From Candidatus Parvarchaeota archaeon (lineage in GTDB: Archaea; Nanobdellota; Nanobdellia; JAFCGN01), in assembly GCA_017608045.1 (NCBI GenBank), contig JAFCGN010000002.1:116151-180150 (forward strand): a stretch of DNA of 64,000 nucleotides, in the 5' to 3' direction. The position numbers and the translations under genes are program-made. Shown piece after piece: positions 3,067 to 63,391 of this stretch (the first letter of the stretch is position 1; every line of letters starts with the position of its first letter). Under the pieces are notes generated by a model. The model did no database searches. It saw only the letters and a program-made list of their open reading frames with translations, and was not told the DNA's origin.

Positions 3067-3158
3067 ATAGTGAGATATAAAAATAATTTATTTTAAAAAT
3101 ATTGTGAATCAATATAAAAAAAACATATTTAAAGAAGCTACGTTTATTATTAAATCAG

Positions 3159-3626
3159 GTGATTATAATTATGACAAAAAAAGCACAAGCAGCACTTGAA
3201 TACTTAATGACCTATGGTTGGGCAATATTGATTATAGCAATAATTGCAGGAGCACTTTATTATATGAATGTTTTCAGTAGTAGTTGTGATTCTCCAATTT
3301 CAACAGGATTTTCAGGTGTGGAAATTTTAAGCAATGATTTTGCCTTTACTTCAGAAGGTGATCTTGAGATTATACTGACAAATGCTGCAGCGGAAACAGT
3401 GCATATTCTAAATGTTACTGTTCAAAACGGAACATCTACAGATGTAGCAAATACAACAGCACTAACTCTTGACGCAGGAACTACAATAACATATACTTTT
3501 TCAGGATTAACAAGTCCTGGAAGTAAAGGAAGTTGTTATACAGAAGATGTTGCAATCTATTATACAAGAGGAGACTTAAGCACAATTTTCAAGAGCACAG
3601 GTTCATTAAGGCACGCAGTGCAGTAA
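3159..3626 (+). CDS. Archaeal type IV pilin-like protein (class III signal peptide)
   Basis: N-terminus MTKKAQAALEYLMTYGWAILIIAIIAGALYY is a classic archaeal prepilin signal (KK-AQAALEYL, then a hydrophobic helix). Small Thr/Asn-rich mature domain with N-x-S/T sequons. Confidence 0.75.
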   Translation: MIIIMTKKAQAALEYLMTYGWAILIIAIIAGALYYMNVFSSSCDSPISTGFSGVEILSNDFAFTSEGDLEIILTNAAAETVHILNVTVQNGTSTDVANTTALTLDAGTTITYTFSGLTSPGSKGSCYTEDVAIYYTRGDLSTIFKSTGSLRHAVQ

Positions 3627-3706
3627 AAAACCATTCTTTTTTTATTTTTTTTAAATAATTTGGTTAATTAGAAATGTTATTATTTCCAAATTAATTAAAC
3701 TACAAT

Positions 3707-4117
3707 ATGAAAAATAAAAACTCTCAAGTTGCTGTTGAATATTTGATTATGTTAGGCATAGTGCTTCTTGTATTTTCAGTTATGTGGGGTAGAGTAAGTC
3801 AGGTTGCCCAATTAACAAGAATAAATGTTCGCATAAGTAATGCAGAAACTTATCTTGAAAAATTGAAAACAAACATAGATTTAGTTAATTTTTATGGTGA
3901 GCCAACTAAAATAGAAATGATTGCTTATGTTCCTGATGGTATATCTTTTGTTAATCTCTCAAATAATGAAATAATTTTGGGTGTTGAAACAACAGCAGGA
4001 CAAACAATTATGGGTGTAAAAACAAGAGCCAATTTAAGTGGTATCCTGCCGTATAAGAGAGGGACTTACAGGGTTTTAATAAAAGCAGTTGGAGACGAAG
4101 TAAATTTAAGTTATTAA
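3707..4117 (+). CDS. Pilin-like protein (class III signal peptide)
   Basis: MKNKNSQVAVEYLIMLGIVLLVFSVMW: charged tip, Q-x-A-x-E-Y-L, hydrophobic helix. Second gene in the pilin run. Confidence 0.6.
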   Translation: MKNKNSQVAVEYLIMLGIVLLVFSVMWGRVSQVAQLTRINVRISNAETYLEKLKTNIDLVNFYGEPTKIEMIAYVPDGISFVNLSNNEIILGVETTAGQTIMGVKTRANLSGILPYKRGTYRVLIKAVGDEVNLSY

Positions 4118-4530
4118 TGGCGGGGGTTATAATGAAAAATAAAAAATCACAATCAACGATTGAGTTTATTGGTGTTTTTTCAATATTTTTAATTTTAACA
4201 AGTACTTTTTATTTGCTTTTTATAAATTATTCAAATAACATAATTAAAAAAAGAGCATATTTTCAAACAGAAAATTTATTAGAACTAATCTCTTCAAAAA
4301 TAAATACTGTTGTTTTAGAAGGAGATGGGTATAAAACAATATTGGATGTTCCGCATAAACTTCTTGGTTCTGATTATAATATTACAATTGAAGGAAATGT
4401 TCTTGTTTTAACACTTGACAAATACGGCATTTCTTTAACAAAAGAATTCCTGCCTGTAAATATTTCTGGAAAACTTAAGAAAGGAACCAATAATCTTAAA
4501 AATTTTAAAGGAGGAGTTGTGATTGAATAA
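4117..4530 (+). CDS. Pilin-like protein (class III signal peptide)
   Basis: MKNKKSQSTIEFIGVFSIFLILTSTFYLLF. Start overlaps the previous stop (TAATG). Confidence 0.5.
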   Translation: MAGVIMKNKKSQSTIEFIGVFSIFLILTSTFYLLFINYSNNIIKKRAYFQTENLLELISSKINTVVLEGDGYKTILDVPHKLLGSDYNITIEGNVLVLTLDKYGISLTKEFLPVNISGKLKKGTNNLKNFKGGVVIE

Positions 4531-5023
4531 AAAATCTCAATTGTTTAGCATTGATGTTGGAATAACATTTTTGGTTTTTGTAGGTTTTATTGTTATTTTT
4601 GTTAATTTATGGAATCAAAATGTTAGACAATTAGATGAAAGTTTGTTAAAACAGAATCTTCAAGAAAAAATTTCGTTTTATTCAGATTATCTTGTAAGAA
4701 CGAAAGGGTATCCTGAGGATTGGAATGCATCTAATGTTTTGCTCATTGGTTTTGCAGGAGATGAAGAAAACATTCTTTTAATTTCAAAAATAGAAAAATT
4801 TATGACACTCAATTATACTTTTGCGAGAAGTAAGATGAATTTAAATGGAAAAGAATTTTACTTAAAAATTATTGATGTTATAAACAACAAAACACTTTAT
4901 TCTTATGGAAACTTGAGTTATCAGAGTGCAACAAATTTAATTCAGATTACACGTTTTTGTCTTGTAAATGACAGTACAAAGTTGATTCCTTCAAAACTTT
5001 TGTTAGGGGTGTGGCAAGATTAG
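4523..5023 (+). CDS. Pilin-like protein (class III signal peptide); TTG start overlapping the upstream gene
   Basis: MNKKSQLFSIDVGITFLVFVGFIVIFVNLW: N-terminal KK plus hydrophobic helix. Confidence 0.5.
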   Translation: MNKKSQLFSIDVGITFLVFVGFIVIFVNLWNQNVRQLDESLLKQNLQEKISFYSDYLVRTKGYPEDWNASNVLLIGFAGDEENILLISKIEKFMTLNYTFARSKMNLNGKEFYLKIIDVINNKTLYSYGNLSYQSATNLIQITRFCLVNDSTKLIPSKLLLGVWQD

Positions 5024-5033
5024 AAAAACATTT

Positions 5034-6917
5034 TTGCATAAAAAAGCATTTATTTTTAGTTTAGAACTCCTTGTTGCTTTAAGCATAATTTTTTCTTCAA
5101 TTTATCTTTTAACAACTACAATTCCTTTTTTTGAAGATTCTTTAATAAAAGAAGAAAATCTAAATGTTATGGGGCAAGACTTGATGCAATTTATTACAAA
5201 AACAAGGATAAGTGATTTGCAAGACTTACAATTAGTTCAAGATTATCTCAATCTTGGTTTGATTGAATATAAGGATATAAATGCTTCGTTTGTTGATGTT
5301 ATAGGCACTTTTATGATACAAAACAAGTTTGATTATGCCAAGAATTTAACAGAAGAGGTTTTCGAAAAACTTATTCCAGATAATGTTGGTTATCAAGTTT
5401 ATTTTGATAATGTTTCAATAGCAAACAAGACAATAAGCAATCCTTCTTCAGAATTGACTTTAAAAACATTGTTAAGCGGGTATGCCTTAAATCGTTCTCT
5501 TGAAGGATATATTGCTCGCGCGTGGCTCAATCTTGCGTCATTCAATGAAACAAAAATAATAAGCATTTCTCCAATTGGAAGCGGGTTCAAAAATAATACT
5601 TGTGTTAAATGGTTATGGTGGTGGTGTACAAAAACTGTTGAAGGAGGTAATTTGACTATAGTGAAGAGTTTTGATATTCCTGCGGATATAGAAACTGTTG
5701 TTAATGCTGAACTAATGCTTTCAATTCATGAAGAAGGCGGAAGAGTCTGGATTTATGTGAATGATGTTCTTCAACACGAAGAATACTATGACGACAAAGT
5801 TTATGAAAGAATTCCAATACACAATGTAACTTCTGGGACTAATGTAATTAAAATTATTCAAGAGATGCCATCAAACTATCATGCGCACACACATCCCGGG
5901 TTTTTGTTGAAAGTGGATTATGTGAGAGTAAGAAGGTTAGGTTATAAAGAAAACAAGACAGTTGTTATTGATAAAAGATTTCCCGAGATAATTGCTTCTC
6001 CATCAGTTTGGGAAACTTTTTCTTTTGATATACCAAGAGGGGATAACATAACTAATGCCACTCTTCATTTAGAAGTTTTAAATGTTGATGATTGGGGGGA
6101 AATATGGGTGAATGATAATCAGGTTTGGGTAAATTCATCAGCACAAGGAAATATGACAATTGATTTGGATATACTTCCTTATGTGAATCACGAAAATAAT
6201 GTTTCAACAGGGGAGACGAATGTCATTGCCCCTTATTTTGATATAGAATCTCAAAATGATTACCCAACAGAAAATGCAAGAGGAAATATTATAATTTCAA
6301 ATAATTCATTTGTGCATCTTGAATATCAAAAACCTGAAACAATTCAAAAGTATGGACTCATACCCATTACGCATTCTTTTGAATTTGGGGGAACAGCAGA
6401 GAATGACAAGAGCGTGGAGTTTCCATTAAGTTATCATGAATTAATTAATGCATATGTGCATTTAGCCCAAATTTATAGTTGGAAAGTGGCGTTAGCTGCA
6501 TGGAATGAAAATCAAACTGCTCCAGTTTGGGATAATACATTAAAAGAATGGGTTCCTGAGGAAATGCAGTTTTTTAAATCATCTACTGGAAGAAATGTTC
6601 CTTCTTCTATATACATTCCAATAGACATGCTTGTTAAAAATTCAACAAATTATGTTGAGGCAAGAGATTTTGGAGGAACAGGAAACAAAATATTACCAGA
6701 AAGCACTATTGAATACACTTATTTAGCGCCAGCCCAAGTTGGTTACGCTGATGTTTATGAAACAGAAATACAAGCAATAAATGATGCTATAAATAGACTT
6801 CAAGAGTTAGTTGCTCCATATAACATTACAGGAGAAGTTAATTATTCTGTGTCCTCTGTAACAAATGTAAGATGGCTGTGGGGTCCTGCAGAGGTTAAGG
6901 TGGTGCTTTCAAGATGA
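5034..6917 (+). CDS. Large pilin-like surface protein or adhesin (class III signal-like N-terminus with ~600-aa sequon-rich ectodomain)
   Basis: HKKAFIFSLELLVALSIIFSSIYLL at the N-terminus. Very many N-x-S/T sequons (NAS, NLT, NVS, NKT, NVT, NIT, NAT, NSS, NMT...). TTG start. Confidence 0.5.
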   Translation: MHKKAFIFSLELLVALSIIFSSIYLLTTTIPFFEDSLIKEENLNVMGQDLMQFITKTRISDLQDLQLVQDYLNLGLIEYKDINASFVDVIGTFMIQNKFDYAKNLTEEVFEKLIPDNVGYQVYFDNVSIANKTISNPSSELTLKTLLSGYALNRSLEGYIARAWLNLASFNETKIISISPIGSGFKNNTCVKWLWWWCTKTVEGGNLTIVKSFDIPADIETVVNAELMLSIHEEGGRVWIYVNDVLQHEEYYDDKVYERIPIHNVTSGTNVIKIIQEMPSNYHAHTHPGFLLKVDYVRVRRLGYKENKTVVIDKRFPEIIASPSVWETFSFDIPRGDNITNATLHLEVLNVDDWGEIWVNDNQVWVNSSAQGNMTIDLDILPYVNHENNVSTGETNVIAPYFDIESQNDYPTENARGNIIISNNSFVHLEYQKPETIQKYGLIPITHSFEFGGTAENDKSVEFPLSYHELINAYVHLAQIYSWKVALAAWNENQTAPVWDNTLKEWVPEEMQFFKSSTGRNVPSSIYIPIDMLVKNSTNYVEARDFGGTGNKILPESTIEYTYLAPAQVGYADVYETEIQAINDAINRLQELVAPYNITGEVNYSVSSVTNVRWLWGPAEVKVVLSR

Positions 6918-8167
6918 ACAGAAGAATAAATAAGAAATCTTTTATGTACAGTGTTATTTCAGTTGCACTCATATTCTTGGTTGTTAATTTAGTTTTGATT
7001 GAAACAGAGTTTTCAAAAAATTCTTTTGAACCAAGAAGAACAAAACTTCTTGGCGATCAAATACACCGTTTTGAGCTTAATGTTGAAAAAGACCTTGAAA
7101 AAAGCGTGGATGTTGTTGCAAGAAGAGCTATTGTTAGTGTTATTGATTATTCAATAAATGGAGAACACTCTATTGATAACGCCACGCTTGCTCTTAAAGA
7201 ATTAATGATGAATGGCACAGTGAATGGCGAGCCAATGTTTTTATTGGAAAACAATACTTTAAATTTTTGGTCTCAAAAAATTGATAATCTTGGGAAAAAA
7301 ATGGGGTTTGATTCAAAGTTGAATTATACTGGGATTGAAATCAAGCTCGTTGATTCTTTTGATTTAGCGTTTATTGTAAATTCAACTATAAAAATTACAG
7401 ATGAATTAACAAATTCATCTCAAACAAGAAATGTAAGCACAACTGTTGTTGTGCCTTTAGATGGTTTTGAAGATCCTCTTTATCCTATGAATTCTTTTGG
7501 AAGATTGAGAAAACTTATTTCTCCTTCTCCATATTTAACTTATACTTCAAAAATAGCAAATAGTTCTCAAATACAAGGAAGTATTAGGGGGACAACAATA
7601 ATTGTTCCTTCAAACAATTTAACTGAAATTCAGAATATAAATTCAAAGATTACAAAGATACTCATTGTTCCTGATGCTTCTTTAATTAATGATTCTTTAT
7701 TGAATCAATTTAAAGGATTTATTTCAGAAACAAGTTTTTCTACAACAAGCACAGCAGCGTATATGCTCGGTGTTAAAAATGCTACAAAGATTATCCCAAA
7801 CAATACTGCGCTTGTTATTGACGAAGAAACAGAAACGCTTTGGAACTTAAATAATTTTGATAATCTTATAACAAATAATTATTATGTTGAATCAACAAGA
7901 GGACCAAGTTTTCTTGATAGGATTGAAGGACGTTTATATAATACAAGAGAATATGGTTTAGCAAGCATGGTTAATTTAGTTGAATTTGAAAATGCATATA
8001 TAATTATTAATGACACGCGTTCCATAATTGATTATGAATATTTTAATGAAACAGGCCCTGTTGGAAAACAAGTTAGGGGTTCTTATTATGAGTGGTTGCG
8101 CGTAAGCAATAATCTTGATGGTAATGTTACTCAAACACAAAAATATGGTGTGGAGGAATTAGTATGA
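6914..8167 (+). CDS. Large pilin-like surface protein (class III signal-like N-terminus)
   Basis: MNRRINKKSFMYSVISVALIFLVVNLVLIE. Dense N-glycosylation sequons. Overlaps the upstream gene by 4 nt. Confidence 0.45.
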   Translation: MNRRINKKSFMYSVISVALIFLVVNLVLIETEFSKNSFEPRRTKLLGDQIHRFELNVEKDLEKSVDVVARRAIVSVIDYSINGEHSIDNATLALKELMMNGTVNGEPMFLLENNTLNFWSQKIDNLGKKMGFDSKLNYTGIEIKLVDSFDLAFIVNSTIKITDELTNSSQTRNVSTTVVVPLDGFEDPLYPMNSFGRLRKLISPSPYLTYTSKIANSSQIQGSIRGTTIIVPSNNLTEIQNINSKITKILIVPDASLINDSLLNQFKGFISETSFSTTSTAAYMLGVKNATKIIPNNTALVIDEETETLWNLNNFDNLITNNYYVESTRGPSFLDRIEGRLYNTREYGLASMVNLVEFENAYIIINDTRSIIDYEYFNETGPVGKQVRGSYYEWLRVSNNLDGNVTQTQKYGVEELV

Positions 8168-36875: not shown

Positions 36876-37979
36876 TTACAAAGACAAGAAATTCCTGATT
36901 ACTTGCATATAATATTGCATTACATTTTTGAATTGATTAAGACCCCATTTAATGCCTTTTTCTTCAATTAATTCATTTATTTCTTCATCACTTAATTCTT
37001 TGCTTAATGAATTTAAATTAACTTGGATGCTTGCAATTATTTCTTTATATTTCTTCTTATTAAGTTTTTTTTCTAATTCTTTTTTTTGAAATTGCAGTTG
37101 AGATTTTAATTCAGGACTCATTCTTATTTGTTGCATTAATTGATAAACCTTTTTAACCCAAGTATCAAGCTCATCTTTGAATTTTAAGTATTCATTAATA
37201 GATTCTTTTAATTGTTTAATCTGATTTTCCGTGCCTTTGCTTAAGTAAGGACTCTCTTTTAACATTTTTATTTTAATTTTCTTAGGTATTTTGGCATTTA
37301 TTTTGCCTTCTTTAATTAATTTTTTTTCTTCTTTCTCAATTTTTTTGCTTATCTCATCCTCTTCTATTTCTCTAATTTCTTCTTCTATTTCTCTAATTTC
37401 TTCTTCGAGCTTTTGTTTTTTGGCTTCTAACTCAGGACTTTTGCCTTGTTTTTTTTCAAGTTTTTCTATTGCTTTTATTGTTTTTTTTAATTCCTCTATT
37501 TTTTCTTCATCATGTTCTTTTATATCTTCCACATCTTTTGTTATTTCACGCATTTTTTTGTGCATTTTCTTTTCTAATTTATTGAAATCATCCATTTTTT
37601 TCTTAAGATCATACAACAAATCAATTACTCCATTCAACAAATTTATATATTTTTCAGCATATTCATAGAAGTTCTCTTTGTTTTTAGGATGTTCAAAAGA
37701 CTTAGAATTATTTATTATTTGAATAATAATTTCTTTTTTTTGATTACTCATTTCATAAATTTTTTTAGAAATCTCTAAAACTTCTTCAAGCAATTCTGAT
37801 TCTTTTTCATCAAGTTTATGTATTTTTTTTATACTTTTTTCAATATCTTTTTCTTCTTTTATTTCTTCTTCAATTTCTTCTTTTATTTCTTCTTCTTGTT
37901 TTTTTATTTTTTCCATTTCTTTAACGCTTTTTTCCAGAATTTTTTCTTGTTCTTTATTTATTTCTCCATTCTTTGCCAT
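36876..37979 (-). CDS. Lys/Glu-rich coiled-coil protein (367 aa) with internal EEEIREI repeats
   Basis: Heptad-like K/E pattern throughout. Perfect 21-nt tandem duplication in the DNA. 6-nt gap to the upstream coiled-coil gene. Confidence 0.4.
   Translation of the reverse strand: MAKNGEINKEQEKILEKSVKEMEKIKKQEEEIKEEIEEEIKEEKDIEKSIKKIHKLDEKESELLEEVLEISKKIYEMSNQKKEIIIQIINNSKSFEHPKNKENFYEYAEKYINLLNGVIDLLYDLKKKMDDFNKLEKKMHKKMREITKDVEDIKEHDEEKIEELKKTIKAIEKLEKKQGKSPELEAKKQKLEEEIREIEEEIREIEEDEISKKIEKEEKKLIKEGKINAKIPKKIKIKMLKESPYLSKGTENQIKQLKESINEYLKFKDELDTWVKKVYQLMQQIRMSPELKSQLQFQKKELEKKLNKKKYKEIIASIQVNLNSLSKELSDEEINELIEEKGIKWGLNQFKNVMQYYMQVIRNFLSL
37361..37402. repeat. Perfect 21-nt x2 tandem repeat (cttctatttctctaatttctt) inside the coiled-coil gene, encoding EEIREIE x2
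   Basis: Read directly: 37361..37381 is identical to 37382..37402. Confidence 0.8.
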
Positions 37980-37985
37980 TTTTCA

Positions 37986-38615
37986 TCACTTTTCTAAAAT
38001 CTCTTTTTGTTCCTTTATTTCATTTTCAATTTCTTCAGCACTTTTTTCAATTCCCTCTATCTCGGTTTCTTTTTCTTTAACCTCTACTTCAGTTTCTTCC
38101 TTTGATTTTTTAACCCCTTTTTTTGAAACACGCAATACTTGTTCTTTAGAAGTTATTAAATTCTTAAGATAAGTAGCTCTTTCATAAAGCTCTTTTGATT
38201 GTGATACTTGTTCATCCTGGTATTTTAGAATTCTCTCCCACACTTCTTTATATCCCGGACGCACTTCTCCTGTAGTATATTCTATTCTTTCTGAAGTAAT
38301 GCTTCCAATTAATTTTTCTATGGTAAAATCCAAATTTGCATAATAATGCAATTCTAATGCTTCTACATCTCTTAAAACATCTTCTGTCTCTGCAACATCT
38401 CCTTTTTTGATTTTAATTATTGAAGTACTAATGTTTTTTAATCTCTTATTAGCTTTCTTTAAAAAAATTTCAAATTTTCTGTTTTCTTCACCTTTACCTA
38501 TCTCTTTTGCCTTTAATCTTCTTCTTGGTAAAGGAGGCGCTATTTTTAAAAGAAATCTTATGGGAAAAGTAATCATGTTTATAATGCTTGAAAAAATACC
38601 TGCTTTTTTATTCAT
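37986..38615 (-). CDS. Coiled-coil protein with a PspA/IM30/ESCRT-III-like N-terminus (putative)
   Basis: 209 aa. N-terminal amphipathic AGIFSSIINMI resembles the PspA MGIFSR start. Basic N-terminal half, acidic C-terminal half (EETEVEVKEKETEIEGIEKSAEEIENE). Confidence 0.3.
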   Translation of the reverse strand: MNKKAGIFSSIINMITFPIRFLLKIAPPLPRRRLKAKEIGKGEENRKFEIFLKKANKRLKNISTSIIKIKKGDVAETEDVLRDVEALELHYYANLDFTIEKLIGSITSERIEYTTGEVRPGYKEVWERILKYQDEQVSQSKELYERATYLKNLITSKEQVLRVSKKGVKKSKEETEVEVKEKETEIEGIEKSAEEIENEIKEQKEILEK

Positions 38616-42089: not shown

Positions 42090-42641
42090 ATGGCTTTTAC
42101 GAAAGAATATAAAATAGAAAATGTTGTTGCAAGTGCTGTACTTTATGTTGACATTCCTTTGGAAAAACTTGCAATGACTCTCTATAATACAGAGTACAAT
42201 CCGGAACAATTCCCAGGACTTGTTTTAAGGCTTTCAAGAAAAAGGATAACTGCTTTAATTTTTAGCAGTGGAAAAATTGTGTGCACAGGAGCAAAAAGCG
42301 TAGCAGATGTGAGGGAGGGCGTGCAATTAATTATTGAAGAATTAGCTAAAGCAAATATAAAAGTGACAAAAAAACCAAGCATTTCAATACAGAATATGGT
42401 GGCAAGCGGTAATCTCGGGGAAGAACTTAATCTCGTGGATTTAGCATTTAAACTCAAAACAGCAGAGTATGATCCTGAAAGATTCCCAGGCTTAGTTTAT
42501 AAAGTGCCTGACAGTCATATAACTTTCTTGCTTTTTGGAACAGGAAAAATTGTGTGCACAGGAGCAAAAAACAATAAAGAAATTAGTGATGCAGTAGATG
42601 ATTTAATAAAGGAATTAAAAAAAGTTACTAAAAAGAAATAA
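42090..42641 (+). CDS. tbp: TATA-box binding protein
   Basis: Two TBP repeats (IENVVASAVL…EQFPGLVLRL; IQNMVASGNLG…ERFPGLVYKV). 183 aa. Confidence 0.9.
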   Translation: MAFTKEYKIENVVASAVLYVDIPLEKLAMTLYNTEYNPEQFPGLVLRLSRKRITALIFSSGKIVCTGAKSVADVREGVQLIIEELAKANIKVTKKPSISIQNMVASGNLGEELNLVDLAFKLKTAEYDPERFPGLVYKVPDSHITFLLFGTGKIVCTGAKNNKEISDAVDDLIKELKKVTKKK

Positions 42642-43043: not shown

Positions 43044-45845
43044 ATGAGGAAGTGTTTTTTAAAACATATGTCAAAATACATTAAGTGGTTGAAGGAATTA
43101 AATAAAAATTCAATACCTCAAGCAGGAGGGAAAGGCGCGAATCTTGGGGAAATGTATAATAATGGATTTCCAGTGCCAAATGCATTTGTAGTTGTTGCTG
43201 ACGCTTATTGGGATTTCATTATTAAGACAAGGGCAAAAGAGGAAATTGAAGAACTTCTTTCTGAACTTGATGTGAATAACACAGAACAATTATCAGACAT
43301 CTGCAATCAAATACAAAAAATAATTATTAATAGTAAAATGCCTGATGAAATTGCTCAAGAGATTAAAAACGCGTATTTAGAATTAGCAGCAGGCGGACCT
43401 GAACAAGCAAAAATTATTGCTAATAAAAATATTGGCGGTCTTCTTAATATGTCAAAAGAATTGCCCTTTGTTGCAATTCGTTCTTCAGCAACAGCAGAAG
43501 ATTTGCCAAGTGCAAGTTTTGCAGGACAACAAGCAACTTTTTTGAACATTAAAGGAACAAGCAATGTTGTGGATGCTGTGAAGAAGTGTTGGGCGTCCTT
43601 ATTTACTGCAAGAAGCACATTTTACAGGGAAAAAAATCACTTTAATCATATGAAAGTTAAAATTGCAGTTATTGTTGAAAAAATGGTTGATTCTGTTAAG
43701 TCAGGAGTTGCATTTAGTCATGACCCAAATACTGGTGAAAAAACAATAATTATTGAAAGCGTGTGGGGTCTTGGTGAGATGATTGTAAGTGGGAAAGTTA
43801 ATCCAGATCATTATGTTATTGATTATGATACTCTGAATATAAAGAGCAAGAAAATTATGAAGCAGAAAGTAATGATGATTAAAGATCCTATGACAGGTCA
43901 ATCTCTTATTACAGAAGTTCCTTTAAAAAAACAAGAATCTCAAGTTCTTACTGATAATGAAATAATTGATTTAGCGAAACTTGTTAGAAAAGTATCAGAG
44001 CATTATCATTCTCCGCAGGATATAGAGTGGGCAATTGAAGATGGAAGAATTTTTATTGTTCAATCAAGACCAATAACAACGATAAGAAAAAAAGAAGAAA
44101 ACAACAAAATTTCAGAAAGCAGCACAACTGAAACACCTGTTTTAGAAGGATTAGCAGCCAGCCCTGGTGTTGTAAGCGGGGTTGTAAGAATTATTACTGA
44201 TTTAGATGAGGCATCAAGAAGCTTCAAACAAGGAGAAATACTTGTTACAAAAATGACTGACCCAGATTTTGTTCCATTAATGGAGAAAGCAAAAGCTATT
44301 ATAACTGATGAAGGGGGTTCTACAAGTCATGCTGCAATTGTGAGCAGGGAGATGGGCGTGCCTTGCATTGTTGGCACTTCAAAAGCAACAATGGTTTTAA
44401 AGACAGGCGATTATGTGAGAGTTGATGCAAATAATGGAAAAGTTTATAGGGTTTCTGAAACAATTGCTGATGAAAAAAAAGTGGAGGAACCCCTTCAAGA
44501 AGTAAAGGAATTAGAAGAGCCTGAAACTCGTGAAGAAGTTAGAGAATCTTTTGAGAATTACAAAAAAGTAATAACTGCGACAAAAATATATATGAATCTT
44601 GGATTGCCAGATATGGCTGAAAAATATAAGAATTTACCTATTGATGGCATAGGATTAATGAGGGAAGAATTCATTATAACAAGTGAATTGAAAGAGCATC
44701 CTTTGGAATTAGTGGAAAAAGGAGAGACAAATAAATTTGTTCAAGCACTTGTTCAAGGAATAACAAAAGTGTGCAAGACATTTTATCCAAGACCTGTTAT
44801 TTTAAGATTCAGTGATTTTAAGACAAATGAGTATAGGGATATGGTGGGTGGGGAAAAATATGAGCCAAAAGAACATAATCCAATGCTTGGTTGGAGAGGT
44901 TGTTCAAGGTATATTTCCCCGGAATTTAGAAAAGTTTTTGAACTTGAATTAGAAGCAGTGAAAATTGTAAGACAATCATTTAAGAACTTGCATGTGATGT
45001 TCCCGTTTGTAAGAACAGTTGAAGAGCTTCAAAAAGTTATTGAAATAACTGAATCAAAGGGTTTGAAAAGAAGCGAGGATTTTAAAATATATGTTATGGC
45101 AGAGGTGCCGAGTGTTATTTTGCTTGCTGAAGAATTTAGCAAGTATTGCGATGGTTTTAGTATAGGGAGCAATGATTTAACGCAGTTAGTTTTGGGTGTT
45201 GATAGGGATTCAACTATTCTTGCTAAAACAGGCATGTATAATGAGCTTAATCCTGCTGTAATTAAAGCAATAAAACAATTAATAAAGTCAGCACACTCCA
45301 AAGGTAAAACAGTAAGCATTTGTGGTCAAGCACCAAGCGTGTATCCTGAATTCGTAGAAATGCTTGTAAGAGAAGGTATTGATAGCATAAGTGTGAATCC
45401 TGATGTTGTTTTAAAAGTAATGAGGAGTGTTGCGAGCATAGAGAGGAAAATTCTTCTTGAAAAAAACATACAAGACATACCTGGTGATGAAATTAAAGAT
45501 TATGAAGAAGTTGAGATAGAAACCTCGCCTGTTTCAGAAGACTTGTCTGAAAAGCAAGAAACCAAAACGGATGTCATTGATGAAGAAAATTATTTTGATT
45601 TAGAAAATGATTCAGAAAAAAATATGAATGAAGATTATGTTGATTTAACAGAAAATACTGGAATTTATATTGATGAAACAGAGAATATTGAAACAGAAAA
45701 TAATTCAGAAATAACTTCAGAAGACTTGTCAGAAGATATTGGAAGTAATGATACTAAAATTGAGACAGAAAATGGAAATGAAGGAGAGGAAAAAGAGAGC
45801 ATTGATGAAGATATAGAGAATTATTTTGATTTTGAGAAATTATAA
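43044..45845 (+). CDS. ppsA: Phosphoenolpyruvate synthase (PEP-utilizing enzyme) with ~130-aa acidic low-complexity C-terminal tail
   Basis: GGKGANLGEM. FVAIRSSATAEDLPSASFAGQQATFLNIKG. Phospho-His domain GGSTSHAAIVSREMGVPCIVG. ILRFSDFKTNEYRDMVGGEKYEPKEHNPMLGWRGCSRYIS. Confidence 0.85.
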   Translation: MRKCFLKHMSKYIKWLKELNKNSIPQAGGKGANLGEMYNNGFPVPNAFVVVADAYWDFIIKTRAKEEIEELLSELDVNNTEQLSDICNQIQKIIINSKMPDEIAQEIKNAYLELAAGGPEQAKIIANKNIGGLLNMSKELPFVAIRSSATAEDLPSASFAGQQATFLNIKGTSNVVDAVKKCWASLFTARSTFYREKNHFNHMKVKIAVIVEKMVDSVKSGVAFSHDPNTGEKTIIIESVWGLGEMIVSGKVNPDHYVIDYDTLNIKSKKIMKQKVMMIKDPMTGQSLITEVPLKKQESQVLTDNEIIDLAKLVRKVSEHYHSPQDIEWAIEDGRIFIVQSRPITTIRKKEENNKISESSTTETPVLEGLAASPGVVSGVVRIITDLDEASRSFKQGEILVTKMTDPDFVPLMEKAKAIITDEGGSTSHAAIVSREMGVPCIVGTSKATMVLKTGDYVRVDANNGKVYRVSETIADEKKVEEPLQEVKELEEPETREEVRESFENYKKVITATKIYMNLGLPDMAEKYKNLPIDGIGLMREEFIITSELKEHPLELVEKGETNKFVQALVQGITKVCKTFYPRPVILRFSDFKTNEYRDMVGGEKYEPKEHNPMLGWRGCSRYISPEFRKVFELELEAVKIVRQSFKNLHVMFPFVRTVEELQKVIEITESKGLKRSEDFKIYVMAEVPSVILLAEEFSKYCDGFSIGSNDLTQLVLGVDRDSTILAKTGMYNELNPAVIKAIKQLIKSAHSKGKTVSICGQAPSVYPEFVEMLVREGIDSISVNPDVVLKVMRSVASIERKILLEKNIQDIPGDEIKDYEEVEIETSPVSEDLSEKQETKTDVIDEENYFDLENDSEKNMNEDYVDLTENTGIYIDETENIETENNSEITSEDLSEDIGSNDTKIETENGNEGEEKESIDEDIENYFDFEKL

Positions 45846-50909: not shown

Positions 50910-51731
50910 ATGAGTGGAAATAAAACTGTTTGGCAAGAAGAGAATAAATTAGAACAAAGTTTGAAAGAAATAAAACATAAAATCATAGTAATGAGTGGAA
51001 AAGGAGGCGTTGGAAAAAGCACAATCGCTACTAATCTCGCTGTTTCCTTGTCTAAAAAAGGGTTTAAGGTTGGAATTCTTGATGCGGATATTCACGGACC
51101 AAGCATTCCAAAACTATTGGGTATTGAAAATAGTAAAGCGTATGAAAAAAATGGAAAAATAACACCTATAAACATTAATGAAAATCTTAAAGTAATGTCA
51201 ATAGGATTTATGCTTCCAAAAACAACGTCTCCTGTGATCTGGCGAGGGCCTTTAAAATTGAAATTAATCAGGCAATTTTTGCAAGATGTTCAGTGGGATA
51301 AACTTGACTACCTTGTTATAGACTTGCCTCCTGGAACTGGCGATGAATCAATAAGTATAGCACAATTAATTAAAAAAATTGATGGGGCTTTAATTATTAC
51401 TACACCGCAAGAAGTTGCGCTTTTAAGTGTGCAGAAATCAATAAATTTTGCAAAAAGATTAAATGTTTCAATTCTTGGTTTAATTGAAAACATGAGTGGT
51501 TTTAATTGTCCTTATTGCCATAAAGAAATAAATATTTTTGGAAAAGGAAAAAGTGAAGAAGTATGCAAAAGAATGAAAATAGATTTTTTAGGCAAAATTC
51601 CAATAAGATGTGAAATTGCAAAAGCAAGTGATAAAGGCAAACCCTTTGTTTTAGATTATAAAGAGTTTGATTTCTCAAAAATATTTGAGAATATTGTTGA
51701 AAAAATAATTCAAAAAACGCAAATCATGTAG
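50910..51731 (+). CDS. Mrp/NBP35/ApbC Fe-S cluster carrier ATPase
   Basis: Deviant Walker A VMSGKGGVGKST. CPYC motif (FNCPYCHKEINIFG). Confidence 0.85.
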   Translation: MSGNKTVWQEENKLEQSLKEIKHKIIVMSGKGGVGKSTIATNLAVSLSKKGFKVGILDADIHGPSIPKLLGIENSKAYEKNGKITPININENLKVMSIGFMLPKTTSPVIWRGPLKLKLIRQFLQDVQWDKLDYLVIDLPPGTGDESISIAQLIKKIDGALIITTPQEVALLSVQKSINFAKRLNVSILGLIENMSGFNCPYCHKEINIFGKGKSEEVCKRMKIDFLGKIPIRCEIAKASDKGKPFVLDYKEFDFSKIFENIVEKIIQKTQIM

Positions 51732-51792: not shown

Positions 51793-52857
51793 ATGAAAAA
51801 AGAAACAATTGCATGGATATCTTTGATAGCCACCTTTTTTTTAGCACTCTTAAAAATATTAGCAGGCATTATTGTCAAGTCAGCATCTGTTCTTGCAGAA
51901 GGACTTCATTCAGGAATGGATGTAATTTCTTCAGGAATAACTATTTTAGGAATAAGAGTTGCAAAAAAACCTGTTGATGAAAAACACCCTTATGGTCATT
52001 ATAAATTTGAAGTTTTGTCAGGTCTTATAATAACCATAATTTTGTTTTTTACAGGCGTGGGAATTGTGTATGATGCACTAAAAAGATTTATGGGTGTTTC
52101 AGAGCTTGAATCAACATATGTTGGTTTAATTGTAATGGGTGTTTCAACAGTAGTAAATTGGGCTTTGTCAAAAGCAAAAATCTCTATTGGTAAAAAAGAA
52201 GGCTCAATTAGTTTAATTACAGATGGCGTTCATTCAAGAGTAGATGTTTATGTTTCTTTTGCTGTTTTTTTTGGATTGCTTTTAAATCCTTTTTGGGGAT
52301 ATGCAGATGCATTATTTGCTCTTCTTGTTGGTTTATTCATAATTAAGGAATCATTTTCACTTGGCAAAGAAGCAACAGACTCTCTTTTAGATGTTTCAGC
52401 TGGAGAAGAGATTGAAGATAAAATAAAAGAAATTGTAAAAAAGAAAAAGATAGAACTTGCTGATTTAAAAACGCAAACAAAAGGTTCAATTTATACAGCA
52501 AATTTAAAACTGAAACTGCCTGCTAAGATAAGTGTTGGAGAAGCAACTAAGATTTCAAATAATCTTAGAAAAAAATTGATGGAAGAGATAGATAAATTGA
52601 AGTATGTGGCAATTCAAGTTGAAGGTCATGATATTGAAGAAAATTATTATCAACCTGAAGAAATTTTTGGATTTGGAAAAGGTTTTGGATGGCAGAGGAA
52701 AGGAAGGTTTATGGAAAAATTTGAAAAAGCAAGAGGTGAAGGCCCAGGAGGATATTGTGTGTGCCCGAAGTGTAAGTATAGGGTTAAGCATAAAAGAGGC
52801 GTTCCTTGTTCAACAATTAAATGCCCTAAATGCGGAGCAAGCATGGTGAGAGATTAA
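51793..52857 (+). CDS. Cation diffusion facilitator (CDF) metal efflux transporter with an appended C-terminal Cys4 zinc ribbon
   Basis: CDF signature SGITILGIRVAKKPVDEKHPYGHYKFEVLSGL and six TM helices. C-terminal GGYCVCPKCKYRVKHKRGVPCSTIKCPKCGASMVRD. Confidence 0.8.
   Translation: MKKETIAWISLIATFFLALLKILAGIIVKSASVLAEGLHSGMDVISSGITILGIRVAKKPVDEKHPYGHYKFEVLSGLIITIILFFTGVGIVYDALKRFMGVSELESTYVGLIVMGVSTVVNWALSKAKISIGKKEGSISLITDGVHSRVDVYVSFAVFFGLLLNPFWGYADALFALLVGLFIIKESFSLGKEATDSLLDVSAGEEIEDKIKEIVKKKKIELADLKTQTKGSIYTANLKLKLPAKISVGEATKISNNLRKKLMEEIDKLKYVAIQVEGHDIEENYYQPEEIFGFGKGFGWQRKGRFMEKFEKARGEGPGGYCVCPKCKYRVKHKRGVPCSTIKCPKCGASMVRD
52746..52851. repeat. Copy A of a 106-nt direct repeat (105/106 identical to 53172..53277) encoding the zinc-ribbon tail
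   Basis: Aligned by eye with offset 426 nt. Single mismatch at 52774 (a versus g). Confidence 0.85.
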
Positions 52858-53286
52858 ATGCCCAGACCAAAAAGGTGCAGAAAAATAGGTTTTCAACCAA
52901 GCATAACTTATTTTAAGCCAGCAGGAATTAGAATGCTTGATTTAGAAGAAGTGGTTTTAACTCTTGAAGAATTTGAGGCAATAAGATTAACAGATTTGCT
53001 TGATTTAAAACAGGATGTGGCAGCAAAAAAGATGGATGTATCTCAACCAACTTTTCACAGAGTGCTTTTATCTGCAAGAAAAAAAATTGCAGATTCCCTT
53101 GTTAATGGAAAAGCTATTAAAATAGAAGGAGGCACATACGTGTTTAAAAATAAAATACTTGAGGAAAAATTAGGAGGATATTGTGTGTGCCCGAAGTGTG
53201 AGTATAGGGTTAAGCATAAAAGAGGCGTTCCTTGTTCAACAATTAAATGCCCTAAATGCGGAGCAAGCATGGTGAGAAATATTTAA
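52858..53286 (+). CDS. DUF134/UPF0251-family DNA-binding protein with the same C-terminal Cys4 zinc ribbon
   Basis: MPRPKRCRKIGFQPSITYFKPAGI…LEEFEAIRLTDL…MDVSQPTFHRVLLSARKKIADSLVNGKAIKIEGG matches the DUF134 pattern. Tail GGYCVCPKCEYRVKHKRGVPCSTIKCPKCGASMVRNI. Confidence 0.7.
   Translation: MPRPKRCRKIGFQPSITYFKPAGIRMLDLEEVVLTLEEFEAIRLTDLLDLKQDVAAKKMDVSQPTFHRVLLSARKKIADSLVNGKAIKIEGGTYVFKNKILEEKLGGYCVCPKCEYRVKHKRGVPCSTIKCPKCGASMVRNI
53172..53277. repeat. Copy B of the 106-nt direct repeat
   Basis: See copy A. Confidence 0.85.
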
Positions 53287-53295
53287 TTCTTTGTT

Positions 53296-54204
53296 TTATT
53301 TTACAAAAATTCTTAAAAAATCTTTTGCAGGTCTTGTATTCTTAAAAACCTCTCTTGCTTCTGCAACTAAAGGTTTTATATCAGTATATCTTTGGCTGAA
53401 ATGAGTTAAAACAAGTTTTCCAACTCTTGCTTTTTTACCTAAATCTGCAGCTTCCTTTGCACTTAAATGATATCTTTCTCCCAATTTTTCTTTGTCTTTA
53501 GACAAAAATGTGCTTTCACAAATCAAGATTGTTGAATTACTGCAGAAATCAACAACTCTTTGGTCTATCTTGAAATCTACAGCATAAACAACACTTCTTC
53601 CAGGAACTAATACTGTAGCTTTTTTAGCACTTATTTTTTTACCATTCCATACAATATCCTTTCCTTTTTGCAGTTCTCCAAGTATTTTATTTTGCTTTAA
53701 TCCAAATTTTTTTAAATAACCAACATTGATTTTTCTTTTTGGTTTTTCTTCAAATTTATAAATTAAACAAGGCACATTATGTTTTACACTTAATGCTTTT
53801 ACAAAAAAATTTTCGCTTTCATAAATAATTCTCTCTTTTTGACATGTTATTTCATGCGCTTCTACAGGCATTTTTTTATGAAAATCATAAGTTTCTAATA
53901 TTTTCTGCACTTTTTTCTTTGTTCCTGTTGGCCCCCAAATATGCAAAGTATGTTTTCTATCAGCTGCGTTAAGAGATTGTATTATGCCTCCCAACCCTAA
54001 ACTATGATCCCCATGCCAATGGCTTAAGAATATGTTCTCTATTTTGTAAGGGCTTACACCAGCAACTCTTAATTGCCTTTGTGTTCCTTCACCACAGTCA
54101 AAAAGATTGTAATTTCCTTCATAACGAATGAGCACAGATGAATGGTTTCTTTCCCTTGTAGGATACATGCTGCTTGTTCCTAAAAAAACAATTTCTACTT
54201 GCAT
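53296..54204 (-). CDS. rnz: Ribonuclease Z (tRNA 3' endonuclease, MBL fold)
   Basis: FLGTSSMYPT. His motif FLSHWHGDHSLGLGG. 302 aa. Confidence 0.8.
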   Translation of the reverse strand: MQVEIVFLGTSSMYPTRERNHSSVLIRYEGNYNLFDCGEGTQRQLRVAGVSPYKIENIFLSHWHGDHSLGLGGIIQSLNAADRKHTLHIWGPTGTKKKVQKILETYDFHKKMPVEAHEITCQKERIIYESENFFVKALSVKHNVPCLIYKFEEKPKRKINVGYLKKFGLKQNKILGELQKGKDIVWNGKKISAKKATVLVPGRSVVYAVDFKIDQRVVDFCSNSTILICESTFLSKDKEKLGERYHLSAKEAADLGKKARVGKLVLTHFSQRYTDIKPLVAEAREVFKNTRPAKDFLRIFVK

Positions 54205-60769: not shown

Positions 60770-63391
60770 TTAAGCTTTGTTCTTTATGTTTGCCTGCGCT
60801 GCACTGATTCTTGCTATTGGAACTCTATAAGGACTGCATGACACATAGTCAAGTCCGATTTTGTGGCAGAACTCAATGCTTTTTGGTTCGCCTCCATGTT
60901 CTCCGCAAATGCCAATTTTTAGGTTTTTTCTTGTTTTTCTTCCAAGTTCTAATCCTATTTTGACTAATTTTCCAACGCCTTTTCTGTCTAAGACTTGAAA
61001 TGGGTCATATTCAAAAATGTCTTTTTCAAGATATTCTGGTATGAATTTACCAACATCGTCTCTTGAAAATCCAAAAGTTGTTTGTGTTAGGTCGTTTGTG
61101 CCAAAACTAAAAAACTCTGCTTCTTGTGCAATTTCATCAGCAGTCAGAGCAGCTCTTGGAAGTTCAATCATGGTCCCAATTTTATATTTTAAATTTATGT
61201 TATATTTCTTAATAATTTCTTTTGCTTTGTTTTCTACAATCTTTTTTACAATTCTTAATTCTTCTTTTGAAGAAACAAGAGGTATCATGATTTCTGGTTC
61301 TATATTAAGTCCTTGTTGTTTTAATTCGCATGCAGCTTCAATAATTGCTTGTGTTTGCATTTCATAAATTTCTGGAAAAGTTATTGCTAATCTGCATCCT
61401 CTGTGTCCAAGCATTGGATTTATTTCTTTTAGTTGTTCTATTTTTTCAAGAAGCTTTTGAGGAGAAACACTCATGCTTTCAGATACTTCTTGAATTTCTT
61501 CCATTGTTTGAGGTAAAAATTCATGCAAAGGAGGGTCAAGCAGTCTTATAGTAACAGGAAGTTCTTCCATTACTTTAAATAATCCAATGAAGTCTCCTTT
61601 TTGCATAGGAAGCAATTTTTTAAGTGCTTTTTCCCTTTCTTCTCTTGTGTCTGATAAAATCATTTCTCTTACTGCAACAATCCTGTCTCCTTGAAAAAAC
61701 ATGTGTTCTGTTCTGCAAAGTCCAATGCCTTCTGCACCAAATTCTTTTGCAATTCGTGCATCATGCGGCGTGTCTGCATTTGTTAATACCTTTAATTTTC
61801 TGAATTCATCTGACCATAGCAATATTTTTTTAAACTCTTCTGAAAGTTCAGGTTCAACAAGAGGGAGTGCTCCAATAAAAACTTCTCCTGTGTTTCCATC
61901 AAGAGAAATAATATCTCCTTCTTTAACAAGTGTTGAACCAACAAGGAAAGATTTGTTTTTTTCATCAAAAACAATTTCCCCTGCACCTGTTATGCAACAT
62001 TTACCCATGCCTCTTGCAACTACTGCTGCGTGAGATGTCATCCCGCCTCTTGCTGTTAATACTCCTTCTGAGACAGCCATTCCTTTTATGTCTTCAGGCG
62101 AGGTTTCTAATCGCACTAAAATAACTTTTTTACCTTGTTTTGATTTTTCTTCAGCATCTTGGGCAGAAAAAACAACTTCACCTACTGCTGCTCCAGGTGA
62201 TGCTGGAAGTCCTTTTGTTAATTTTTTTGCCTTTTGTTTTGCAAGATCATCAAGCTGTTTGTGAAGTAGTTGGTTTATTTGTTTTGGATTTATTTTTAAA
62301 AGTGCAGTTTCCTTATCAATTAGTCCTTCTTTCTCCATGTCTACTGCAATTTTTATTGATGCCTTTGCTGTTCTTTTACCTACTCTTGATTGAAGTATGT
62401 ATAGTTTTTTATTCTCAATTGTAAATTCAATGTCAAGCATGTCTTTATAATGGTTTTCAAGTTTTTTTCCTATTTTTACAAGTTCTTCATATACTTTTGG
62501 CATAATTTTTTTTAATTCTTCAATCTCAATTGGAGTTCTTATTCCAGCTACAACATCTTCTCCTTGCGCATTAATTAGAAATTCTCCGTAAAACTCGTTT
62601 TTTCCTGTTGAAGGGTTTCTTGTGAAACACACGCCTGTTCCAGACGTTTCTCCTGTGTTTCCGAAAACCATTGCTTGGATATTTACTGCAGTGCCTAACA
62701 AACCTTTAATATTATTCAATTTTCTATAAATTATTGCTCTTTCATTATTCCATGAATCAAAAACAGCATCAATTGCTAAAAAAAGTTGTTCTTCTGGATT
62801 TTGAGGAAATTCTTTTCCTGTTTTTTCATAAACCACTTTTTTATATTCATTAATTATTTCTTTTAATTCTTCAGTTGTTAATTCAACATCGTATTTAACT
62901 CCTTTTGTTTCTTTTATTTTTTCAAGAATATCTTCAAAAGATTTATGTTCTATTTTCATTACTACATTTCCAAACATTTGTATGAACCTTCTATAACTAT
63001 CGTAAGCAAACCTTTCATTGTTTGTTTTTTTGGCAAGTCCTTGAACGCTTTTATCATTTAATCCTAAATTTAAAACTGTGTCCATCATTCCAGGCATTGA
63101 AACTGCTGCCCCACTTCTAACAGAAATTAATAAGGGATTTTCAAAGTCTCCAAATTTTTTGTTCATTTTCTCTTCAAGTCTTTTTAAATTAAATAGGATT
63201 TTTTCTTTTAGTCCTTCAGGATATTTTTTATTGTGTTCATTATAATATTTGCATACTTCTGTTGTTATTGTAAAACCAGGCGGAACAGGTATGCCTAAAT
63301 TAGTCATCTCATTTAAACCAGCACCTTTTCCACCAAGCAAATTTTTTAATTTTAGGTTTCCTTCACCAAAAAAATAAATCATTTTTTCCAT
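60770..63391 (-). CDS. ppdK: Pyruvate, phosphate dikinase
   Basis: N-terminus MEKMIYFFGEGNLKLKNLLGGKGAGLNEM. Phospho-His GGMTSHAAVVARGMGKCCITG. C-terminal PEP-utilizing TIM barrel (LGHRGCRL…FFSFGTNDLTQ). 873 aa. Confidence 0.9.
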   Translation of the reverse strand: MEKMIYFFGEGNLKLKNLLGGKGAGLNEMTNLGIPVPPGFTITTEVCKYYNEHNKKYPEGLKEKILFNLKRLEEKMNKKFGDFENPLLISVRSGAAVSMPGMMDTVLNLGLNDKSVQGLAKKTNNERFAYDSYRRFIQMFGNVVMKIEHKSFEDILEKIKETKGVKYDVELTTEELKEIINEYKKVVYEKTGKEFPQNPEEQLFLAIDAVFDSWNNERAIIYRKLNNIKGLLGTAVNIQAMVFGNTGETSGTGVCFTRNPSTGKNEFYGEFLINAQGEDVVAGIRTPIEIEELKKIMPKVYEELVKIGKKLENHYKDMLDIEFTIENKKLYILQSRVGKRTAKASIKIAVDMEKEGLIDKETALLKINPKQINQLLHKQLDDLAKQKAKKLTKGLPASPGAAVGEVVFSAQDAEEKSKQGKKVILVRLETSPEDIKGMAVSEGVLTARGGMTSHAAVVARGMGKCCITGAGEIVFDEKNKSFLVGSTLVKEGDIISLDGNTGEVFIGALPLVEPELSEEFKKILLWSDEFRKLKVLTNADTPHDARIAKEFGAEGIGLCRTEHMFFQGDRIVAVREMILSDTREEREKALKKLLPMQKGDFIGLFKVMEELPVTIRLLDPPLHEFLPQTMEEIQEVSESMSVSPQKLLEKIEQLKEINPMLGHRGCRLAITFPEIYEMQTQAIIEAACELKQQGLNIEPEIMIPLVSSKEELRIVKKIVENKAKEIIKKYNINLKYKIGTMIELPRAALTADEIAQEAEFFSFGTNDLTQTTFGFSRDDVGKFIPEYLEKDIFEYDPFQVLDRKGVGKLVKIGLELGRKTRKNLKIGICGEHGGEPKSIEFCHKIGLDYVSCSPYRVPIARISAAQANIKNKA

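Follow-up and report, generated by a model that had tools for sequence, protein, structure and literature searches.

Introduction

The cation diffusion facilitator (CDF) family of metal exporters, which includes YiiP/FieF, CzcD, ZitB, MamM/MamB, and MntE, is built on a common plan in which a six-helix membrane domain is followed by a cytosolic ZT_dimer domain. Many of these proteins have additional metal-binding regions that control transport. In this report, we describe a locus within a 64,000-nucleotide (nt) stretch of DNA from Candidatus Parvarchaeota archaeon, contig JAFCGN010000002.1 (hereafter the window), where the gene for a putative CDF exporter is followed directly by the gene for a putative helix-turn-helix (HTH) DNA-binding protein of the DUF134/UPF0251 family, and where the last ~35 codons of the two genes are nearly identical. 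Unlike the described members of its family, the CDF protein of the window has an extension of ~75 residues after the ZT_dimer domain, composed of a linker with the motif GFGWQRKGRF and a small ribbon domain that carries six cysteines and one histidine (Cys6-His).

The N-terminal 95 residues of the neighboring DUF134 protein fit the model of its family (PF02001) well, and the protein ends in a Cys6-His ribbon, as do many DUF134 members from the DPANN archaea. In contrast to those relatives, its ribbon is of the CDF type and the Gly/Arg-rich linker is absent. A literature search on DUF134/UPF0251/PF02001 and on DUF5320 (PF17253) returned nothing relevant and no functional study of the DUF134 family. 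DUF5320 is of interest here because a free-standing protein of 95 residues, P0274, has a DUF5320 N-terminal region followed by a CDF-like linker and ribbon, whereas the canonical DUF5320 proteins have a C-terminal coiled coil in place of the ribbon. The ribbon itself is most similar to the zinc ribbons and the rubredoxin-like knuckles. The likeness consists of two CxxC knuckles on short β-hairpins, and the structural matches are weak; the ribbon of the window differs in having two more invariant cysteines (C-x-C at the start and C-x4-C toward the end) and a conserved histidine, all at a fixed spacing.

With regard to the nearly identical tails, the closest described process is gene conversion between paralogous segments, which leaves the same kind of short near-identical tract with sharp borders and diverged flanks, while the orthologous segments elsewhere are diverged. 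The bacterial tuf gene pair is an example of gene conversion and concerted evolution, and gene-conversion-like copying is an already known kind of event. The tract in the window differs from sustained homogenization in that it covers one domain segment of two otherwise nonhomologous adjacent genes and is apparently a one-off.

Identity and Borders of the Repeat

The genes and segments of the pair are given below; all are on the forward strand.

51793..52857, forward: CDF metal exporter gene, 354 amino acids (aa) plus stop codon (Cation_efflux, ZT_dimer, and TIGR01297 matches)
52627..52745, forward: linker of the CDF protein, aa 279-318, with the GFGWQRKGRF motif and GPGG (conservation in relatives)
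52746..52851, forward: repeat copy 1, the ribbon of the CDF protein, G319-R353 (105/106 identity to copy 2; probable donor)
52774..52774, forward: sole difference between the copies, A (Lys) here versus G at 53200 (Glu) (self-comparison)
52858..53286, forward: gene for the DUF134/UPF0251 putative HTH DNA-binding protein, 142 aa plus stop codon (PF02001 match)
53143..53171, forward: atypical short linker FKNKILEEKL of the DUF134 protein, in place of the usual Gly/Arg/Met-rich linker
53172..53277, forward: repeat copy 2, the ribbon of the DUF134 protein, G106-R140 (105/106 identity to copy 1; probable recipient)

A self-comparison of the window reproduced the near-identity claimed in a preliminary description of this DNA. 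Positions 52746-52851 and 53172-53277 are identical at 105 of 106 nt, and the lone mismatch is an A at 52774 (AAG, Lys) in the CDF gene against a G at 53200 (GAG, Glu) in the DUF134 gene. Both copies are in frame and constitute the last ~35 codons of two adjacent genes on the same strand, with a spacing of 426 nt between the copies; the start codon of the DUF134 gene abuts the stop codon of the CDF gene. The borders of the repeat are abrupt. The base immediately 5' of the repeat differs between the two copies, and on the 3' side the CDF gene continues with GAT TAA and the DUF134 gene with AAT ATT TAA. The near-identity is confined to the tract and includes the synonymous sites, the flanks are unrelated, and the corresponding segments of other genomes have diverged from one another, which is the pattern of a gene-conversion tract.

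The repeat was confirmed by self-BLAST, a check that the preliminary description had proposed for positions 52600-53300; run over the entire 64-kb window, it found no second long repeat of the 106-nt kind. A mobile element or a set of additional copies is unlikely on the same grounds, together with the finding that the domain profile detects just two instances of the ribbon in the window. Chance or convergence was ruled out, since the synonymous sites are identical, the tails of other genomes have a nucleotide identity of ~60%, and a 44-nt probe taken from the repeat gave 0 matches in 100 shuffles. An RNA-level element is unlikely as well: the repeat folds no better than its shuffled versions (z = 0.07), and the window contains no Rfam hit and no tRNA. 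The GC content of the repeat is 43%, compared with 31-33% in the remainder of the CDF and DUF134 genes and 29% in the window, and this excess is most simply explained by the richness of the repeat in codons for Cys, Gly, and Pro.

Each copy opens with AGGAGG (52746-52760 and 53172-53186), and an in-frame GTG is found 7 nt further on. In principle, this arrangement could give rise to a separately translated ribbon peptide of ~31 residues. More simply, the AGGAGG at the start of the copies is just two GGA codons for glycine.

Tails and Gene Pairing in Other Genomes

Nearly all of the listed top homologues of the CDF protein (55-63% identity) span 99-100% of the query, and nearly all of the listed top homologues of the DUF134 protein (45-70% identity) span 90-100%, in both cases with the tail included. 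The named sources of the tail-bearing homologues are DPANN archaea (Pacearchaeota, Woesearchaeota, Diapherotrites, Aenigmatarchaeota, and Nanoarchaeota) and one Heimdallarchaeote. The six cysteines are invariant in the alignments of 63 CDFs and 57 DUF134 proteins, and in the CDF alignment the histidine is also invariant and the linker GFGWQRKGRF...GPxGY is conserved. We regard the ribbon as a long-standing C-terminal module that the CDF and the DUF134 families of the DPANN archaea have each inherited independently.

A scan of loci, using one genome per species, yielded 80 loci with a full-length CDF that carries the ribbon, from DPANN archaea and from bacteria of the Candidate Phyla Radiation (CPR/Patescibacteria). 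A DUF134 gene is located inside the 4-kb flanks of the CDF gene in 64 of these 80 loci and usually starts within a few hundred bases of it. Across DPANN archaea and CPR bacteria, a ribbon-bearing CDF gene and a downstream DUF134 gene thus make up a conserved pair, in which the ribbon on DUF134 is optional. The proposal that the exporter and its neighboring regulator have a module in common therefore holds up, and the search of other genomes located the ribbon on CDFs, on DUF134 proteins, and on free-standing proteins. The preliminary description had further considered that the ribbon might be a standard part of all DUF134 proteins that diverges independently elsewhere. This is correct in part: the ribbon is standard in the CDF subfamily and in many DUF134 proteins of the DPANN archaea, and the tails of other genomes do diverge independently.

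The extent of that divergence was determined from 24 other within-locus pairs, in 20 of which a CDF tail is paired with a DUF134 tail and in 4 with a free-standing ribbon. The members of a pair are 45-73.5% identical in nucleotide sequence (mean of ~60%) and 38-74% identical in amino acid sequence. Since the tails of other genomes have diverged, the identity of the tails in the window is best read as a lineage-specific event rather than as a general property of the gene pair.

Three further observations concern these loci. In the CPR/Patescibacteria (for example, L022, L043, L054, and L073), the CDF with ribbon is 53-57% identical to the archaeal protein and is followed by a tail-less DUF134 of ~95 aa, and these sequences suggest that the gene pair was transferred between DPANN archaea and CPR bacteria. 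Among loci L012-L081, the labels "uncultured Gammaproteobacteria", "Saccharibacteria", and "Methanosarcinales" attached to some metagenome-assembled genomes (MAGs) look unreliable. The more distant CDF relatives (L121-L131, 35-39% identity; for example, L123, positions 2501-4009) match across 1.4-1.56 kb, which corresponds to ~480-520 codons versus 354 aa in the window; the length of the match suggests that the CDF core and the ribbon are separated by an insertion or by an adjoining gene that bears a tail.

Sister Contig and Timing

A contig of 102,769 bp from a separate assembly of the Joint Genome Institute (JGI), denoted L001, has the gene order of the window and matches it at 98.06% identity across 7 kb; its DUF134 protein is 98% identical to that of the window. 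The two tails of L001 are 98% identical to one another in nucleotide sequence, and the two tails of the window are 99% identical. The CDF tail of L001 differs from that of the window by CAC in place of CAT, and the DUF134 tail by AAA in place of AAG. At the Lys/Glu site, L001 has G in both tails, and thus the lysine-coding A at 52774 is a private derived change of the window strain. The three substitutions among the four tail copies are therefore all private (two of the three are synonymous), and it follows that the common ancestor of the two strains had two identical 106-nt tails. The density of substitutions in the tails (3/212, 1.4%) is similar to that in the flanking DNA (120/7003, 1.7%). 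Because the tails of the ancestor were identical and the later changes have accumulated at a flank-like density, the copying event would have occurred shortly before the split of the strains. All of the ribbon ligands are intact in the four copies. The suggestion of a very recent duplication or ongoing conversion is upheld with respect to a recent copying, which the data require; the word ongoing is not, since the three private substitutions have stayed unhomogenized.

Direction of Copying

The direction of copying was addressed with position-specific profiles constructed from the tails of the nearest relatives. For this comparison 34 residues were used, and the CDF tails were scored leave-one-out. 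The log-odds of the shared tail for CDF over DUF134 were determined to be +8 bits for the CDF copy and +14.7 bits for the DUF134 copy, toward CDF in both cases. Genuine CDF tails have a median of 33 bits and a 10th percentile of 8.3 bits; genuine DUF134 tails have a median of -42 bits, a 90th percentile of -22 bits, and a maximum of +8.8 bits. The six nearest neighbors of the shared tail are all CDF tails (74-82% aa identity), and the best DUF134 tail is 71% identical. The DUF134 copy carries core residues of the CDF type (KHKRGVPCSTIKC).

The linkers are informative on the same point. In 56 DUF134 relatives, the linkers are 8-74 residues in length (median of 26), are rich in Gly, Arg, and Met, and mostly end in GPxG. 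The linker of the window protein, VFKNKILEEKLGGY, counts 14 residues between the EGGxY motif and the first cysteine, and the combined fraction of Gly, Arg, and Met is 0.14. The CDF gene is favored as the donor because of the profile log-odds, the nearest neighbors, and the presence of a canonical linker in the CDF protein versus the loss of the Gly/Arg-rich linker in the DUF134 protein.

The explanation that we consider probable is a single, recent, nonreciprocal copy between adjacent genes that natively share the domain, with the CDF gene as the likely donor. Whether by gene conversion or by the replacement of a segment, one ribbon-coding copy would have been overwritten once by the other. 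In the most likely course, the linker and ribbon originally present in the downstream DUF134 gene gave way to sequence copied from the CDF 3' end, shortly before the lineages of the window and its 98%-identical sister strain separated, after which the four copies would have drifted independently.

Four points weigh against this explanation. The last five residues, GASMV, lean toward the DUF134 type by ~9 bits. The score of the shared tail is low for a CDF tail, given the median of 33 bits and a comparison of 34 residues, and would also fit a mosaic or a copy in the reverse direction. An identity of ~60% between the ancestral copies would make homologous recombination inefficient. Finally, the scans of genomes and metagenomes found no relative between 63% aa identity and 98% nt identity by which the event could be polarized or dated.

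Alternative Explanations

The alternative that survives best is a domain gain, whereby the CDF 3' end was duplicated onto that of a tail-less DUF134 gene, which in this way obtained its first ribbon. Tail-less DUF134 genes are indeed located directly downstream of a CDF with ribbon in many loci, including the archaeal loci L004, L020, L027, and L058. Moreover, the Gly/Arg-rich linker has left no trace in the DUF134 protein of the window, whose FKNKILEEKL segment resembles the short C-termini of the tail-less forms. However, the protein retains the IEGGxY motif of the tail-bearing forms, whereas the tail-less ones mostly end before this motif or are without it, and an exact in-frame fusion by nonhomologous duplication is less likely than conversion between homologous segments. 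We regard a domain gain as unlikely.

A copy in the reverse direction, in which the ribbon of the CDF gene was overwritten by that of the DUF134 gene, would account for the ending GASMVR, which resembles the G[AST]xM[TV]R ending of DUF134 tails (-9 bits over five positions). The tract begins exactly at GGY, so that the CDF linker is left intact whichever way the copy was made. On the other hand, some CDF tails also end in G..M.R (P0124 and P0146), the core residues KHKRGVPCSTIKC are of the CDF type, and the overall log-odds and the six nearest neighbors favor CDF. The abnormal linker, furthermore, belongs to the DUF134 gene. The reverse direction is judged improbable.

Ongoing concerted evolution, in which frequent and selectively maintained conversion keeps the two ribbons identical, would be consistent with the near-identical tails in two strains. 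It would also fit a comparison made across 18 other genomes, where the nucleotide identity of a tail to the partner from its own genome is slightly higher than to those from other genomes (59.3 versus 57.0%, permutation p = 0.004). The corresponding excess is absent at the amino acid level (52.6 versus 51.4%, p = 0.087), and the small nucleotide excess is explicable by shared base composition; a general concerted evolution of the tails across genomes is thus unsupported by this comparison. No other genome has a pair above 73.5% nucleotide identity, and the substitutions that postdate the strain split are private, unhomogenized, and as dense as those in the flanks. This explanation is very improbable.

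An assembly artifact (a chimeric join or a duplicated contig end), which might be suspected because the window is from a metagenome-type assembly, can be dismissed, since the separate JGI contig, ~2% diverged and with unique flanks, contains the same in-frame copies with different private single-nucleotide differences, both reading frames are intact and match full-length homologues, and a 106-nt repeat is shorter than typical sequencing reads.

Properties of the Ribbon Domain

The domain had been described as a Cys4 zinc ribbon. The pattern is instead C-x-C-x2-C-x5-H-x5-C-x4-C-x2-C over ~35 residues, with six invariant cysteines and a histidine that is usually conserved. A profile constructed from both types of tail scores the CDF copy at 73 bits and the DUF134 copy at 71 bits. 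The two CPKC pairs are invariant, and in the AlphaFold2 model short strands flank the two CxxC knuckles. The predicted local distance difference test (pLDDT) score of the ribbon is 87 when it is modeled alone and 77-88 per 10-residue block within the full-length CDF protein.

No Pfam or NCBIfam model, zinc-ribbon models included, reaches its threshold on the ribbon, and a search of the ribbon profile against the sequences of the PDB found no relative, just partial CxxC matches. The nearest folds identified by Foldseek are the knuckles of Trx2, MCM, rubredoxin, nigerythrin, and HypA, with TM-scores normalized to the query of 0.5-0.66. Six or seven residues could serve as ligands, a number that suggests a cluster, a binuclear site, or a further metal site in the domain.

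CDF Exporter and DUF134 Protein

The CDF protein of the window matches Cation_efflux (PF01545) over aa 8-199 (E = 3.4e-45) and ZT_dimer (PF16916) over aa 205-277 (E = 8e-7; 29.5 bits versus a cutoff of 26.7), and it is a member of TIGR01297 (E = 6e-62; 209.6 bits, cutoff of 82). The membrane and dimerization domains are thus both present. In the AlphaFold2 model, six long transmembrane (TM) helices are found within aa 3-198, followed by a cytosolic C-terminal domain with an alpha-beta-beta-alpha-beta order. H39 and D43 in TM2 and H147 and D151 in TM5 are invariant across the alignment of 63 relatives, and we take these positions to be the transport site of the CDF fold. An H-D/H-D arrangement is typical of the zinc-type CDFs. 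The substrate-specific equivalogs of NCBIfam (the best being MntE, MamB, and FieF) score far under their cutoffs and assign neither substrate nor subfamily, and the protein is best described from its sequence as a putative metal exporter.

Neither of the two CDF Pfam models extends over the C-terminal extension. Within the linker, W300 is invariant in the 63 CDFs, and F298, G299, Q301, R302, G304, and F306 are nearly so. Residues 280-305 have a pLDDT below 50 in the AlphaFold2 model, and this part of the linker is probably flexible. The linker and ribbon together are 57% identical to P0274 over 72 aa (E = 2e-28). Because P0274 aligns across the entire extension, the latter looks like a fused small protein. 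P0274 matches the N-terminal half of the DUF5320 model (E = 1e-8), and the CDF protein of the window gives no hit to this model at E ≤ 1.

Residues 3-95 of the DUF134 protein match PF02001 with E = 4e-28 and 98.4 bits versus a cutoff of 27, and its membership in the family is clear. The HTH segment has a weak similarity to Sigma70_r4_2 (E = 0.014) and, in a profile comparison, to the HTH of DeoR (E = 2e-4). The latter was the only match of the DUF134 profile among solved structures.

The Ribbon Family

A profile of 81 tails was compared with 1.84 billion representative proteins (clusters at 50% identity), and 2,301 clusters were found at E ≤ 1e-3, of which 495 have E ≤ 1e-10. The figures for architecture, spacing, and Pfam partners given here were obtained from the best 150 of the 2,301 clusters. 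Approximately half of these 150 are free-standing proteins of 44-115 aa. Others are proteins of 450-1,500 aa with 2-5 tandem copies by motif count (up to 6 HMMER stretches). The spacing between the third and fourth cysteines is 11 residues in 194 of 196 instances of the motif, and the histidine is present in 176 of 196. The Pfam partners are Nitro_FeMo-Co (NifX-like, 25), PDZ (19), ZT_dimer (6), DUF134 (4), Cation_efflux (3), trypsin-like protease (3), DUF5320 (3), and ferredoxin domains (2). The ribbon proteins that carry a name in the source databases are called "hypothetical protein", apart from one JGI label of "predicted Zn-ribbon and HTH transcriptional regulator".

The proteins P0241-P0247 (600-1,430 aa) combine PDZ domains (rhodanese in P0245) with 3-5 ribbons and 1-3 Nitro_FeMo-Co domains, an architecture that is unnamed in the source databases. 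In P0244, P0251, and P0257, an N-terminal hydrophobic stretch that resembles a signal peptide is followed by 2-3 tandem ribbons, which suggests an extracytoplasmic version of the domain.

Proposed Function and Significance

The ribbon is found attached to an exporter, to the HTH protein encoded beside it, and to NifX-like carriers, and it also exists as a protein of its own; this distribution suggests a small metal-binding, metal-cluster-binding, or metal-transfer module. In the CDF protein, the ribbon would hang on a flexible tether of ~40 residues beneath the cytosolic domain and offer six cysteines and one histidine, which would suffice for a structural Cys4 site plus a second site, a binuclear site, or a small cluster. 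With a ribbon on each protein, the exporter and the putative regulator could respond to one cytosolic metal or bind a common partner. If the two proteins read one signal or partner, a swap of ribbons would therefore be tolerated, and a shared metal-sensing or metal-handling role of the CDF and DUF134 proteins is plausible from these sequence features.

More tentatively, one may picture a metal-handling network in anaerobic archaea and bacteria that is joined by the ribbon and includes the CDF exporter, DUF134, NifX-like carriers, DUF5320, Mrp/NBP35, and ribbon-only proteins. Here, the exporter ribbon and the DUF134 ribbon would share a ligand or contact one another, perhaps through a bridging metal, and DUF134 would be a metal-responsive regulator. 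We regard this network as a possibility rather than as the expected outcome. If it is true, the exchange of ribbons would be functionally neutral or even favored. Two results count against such roles for the ribbon. The DUF134 proteins of the CPR bacteria and of some DPANN archaea are tail-less (~95 aa), so that the regulator does not strictly need a ribbon, and the Foldseek matches are nonsignificant (best PDB E = 0.53).

The copying event would provide a clean and datable natural case of a domain segment copied between unrelated neighbors, and it would mean that the ribbons of a transporter and a regulator are interchangeable. The domain family is the more valuable result, since it links the CDF exporter with DUF134, NifX-like, and DUF5320 proteins. 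The family is large (at least 2,301 clusters), its Cys6-His signature is fixed, and neither a Pfam/NCBIfam model nor a solved structure was found for it. The conserved pairing gives DUF134, a very old domain of unknown function, a testable candidate job as the regulator of a metal exporter, and the ribbon is a small peptide whose metal chemistry is directly measurable.

Neighboring Genes and Other Observations

One further gene belongs to the cluster.

50910..51731, forward: Mrp/NBP35 (NUBPL-type) P-loop ATPase, a putative Fe-S carrier (first gene of the same-strand cluster)

The Mrp gene matches the Pfam ParA/NUBPL model with E = 6e-103 and the NCBIfam MrpORP model with E = 2e-113, the latter beneath the cutoff of that model. 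It adjoins the CDF gene in few other loci (L035, L064, and L065). The metal-related genes at the locus of the window are Mrp, CDF, and DUF134 alone. A larger set is found in the archaeal MAG locus L064, where positions 1188-7610 encode, in order, a ZIP transporter, a DUF134 protein with a different ribbon, an Mrp/NUBPL ATPase, a free-standing ribbon of 51 aa, a CDF with ribbon, a canonical DUF5320 protein directly beside it, a methyltransferase, an EncFtn-like ferritin, and a double NifX-like (Nitro_FeMo-Co) protein. The ribbon of the DUF134 protein in L064 is a differing CxxC...CxxC type, combined with a Gly/Arg tail.

Elsewhere in the window, two large PEP-utilizing enzymes that resemble pyruvate phosphate dikinase/PEP synthase are encoded at 43044-45845 (forward strand) and 60770-63391 (reverse strand), and the two proteins are 25% identical. 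An imperfect (83%) direct repeat of 58 nt, 37825-37880 and 37979-38036, is located at the junction of two minus-strand genes in low-complexity coding sequence rich in Glu and Lys. The gene at 42090-42641 reads by eye as a TATA-box-binding protein, which, if correct, would also mark the source organism as an archaeon. It contains a perfect 28-nt repeat (42270-42297 and 42543-42570) that encodes GKIVCTGAK in each of its two half-repeats; either a small conversion within the gene or simply biased codons in a conserved motif may account for it.

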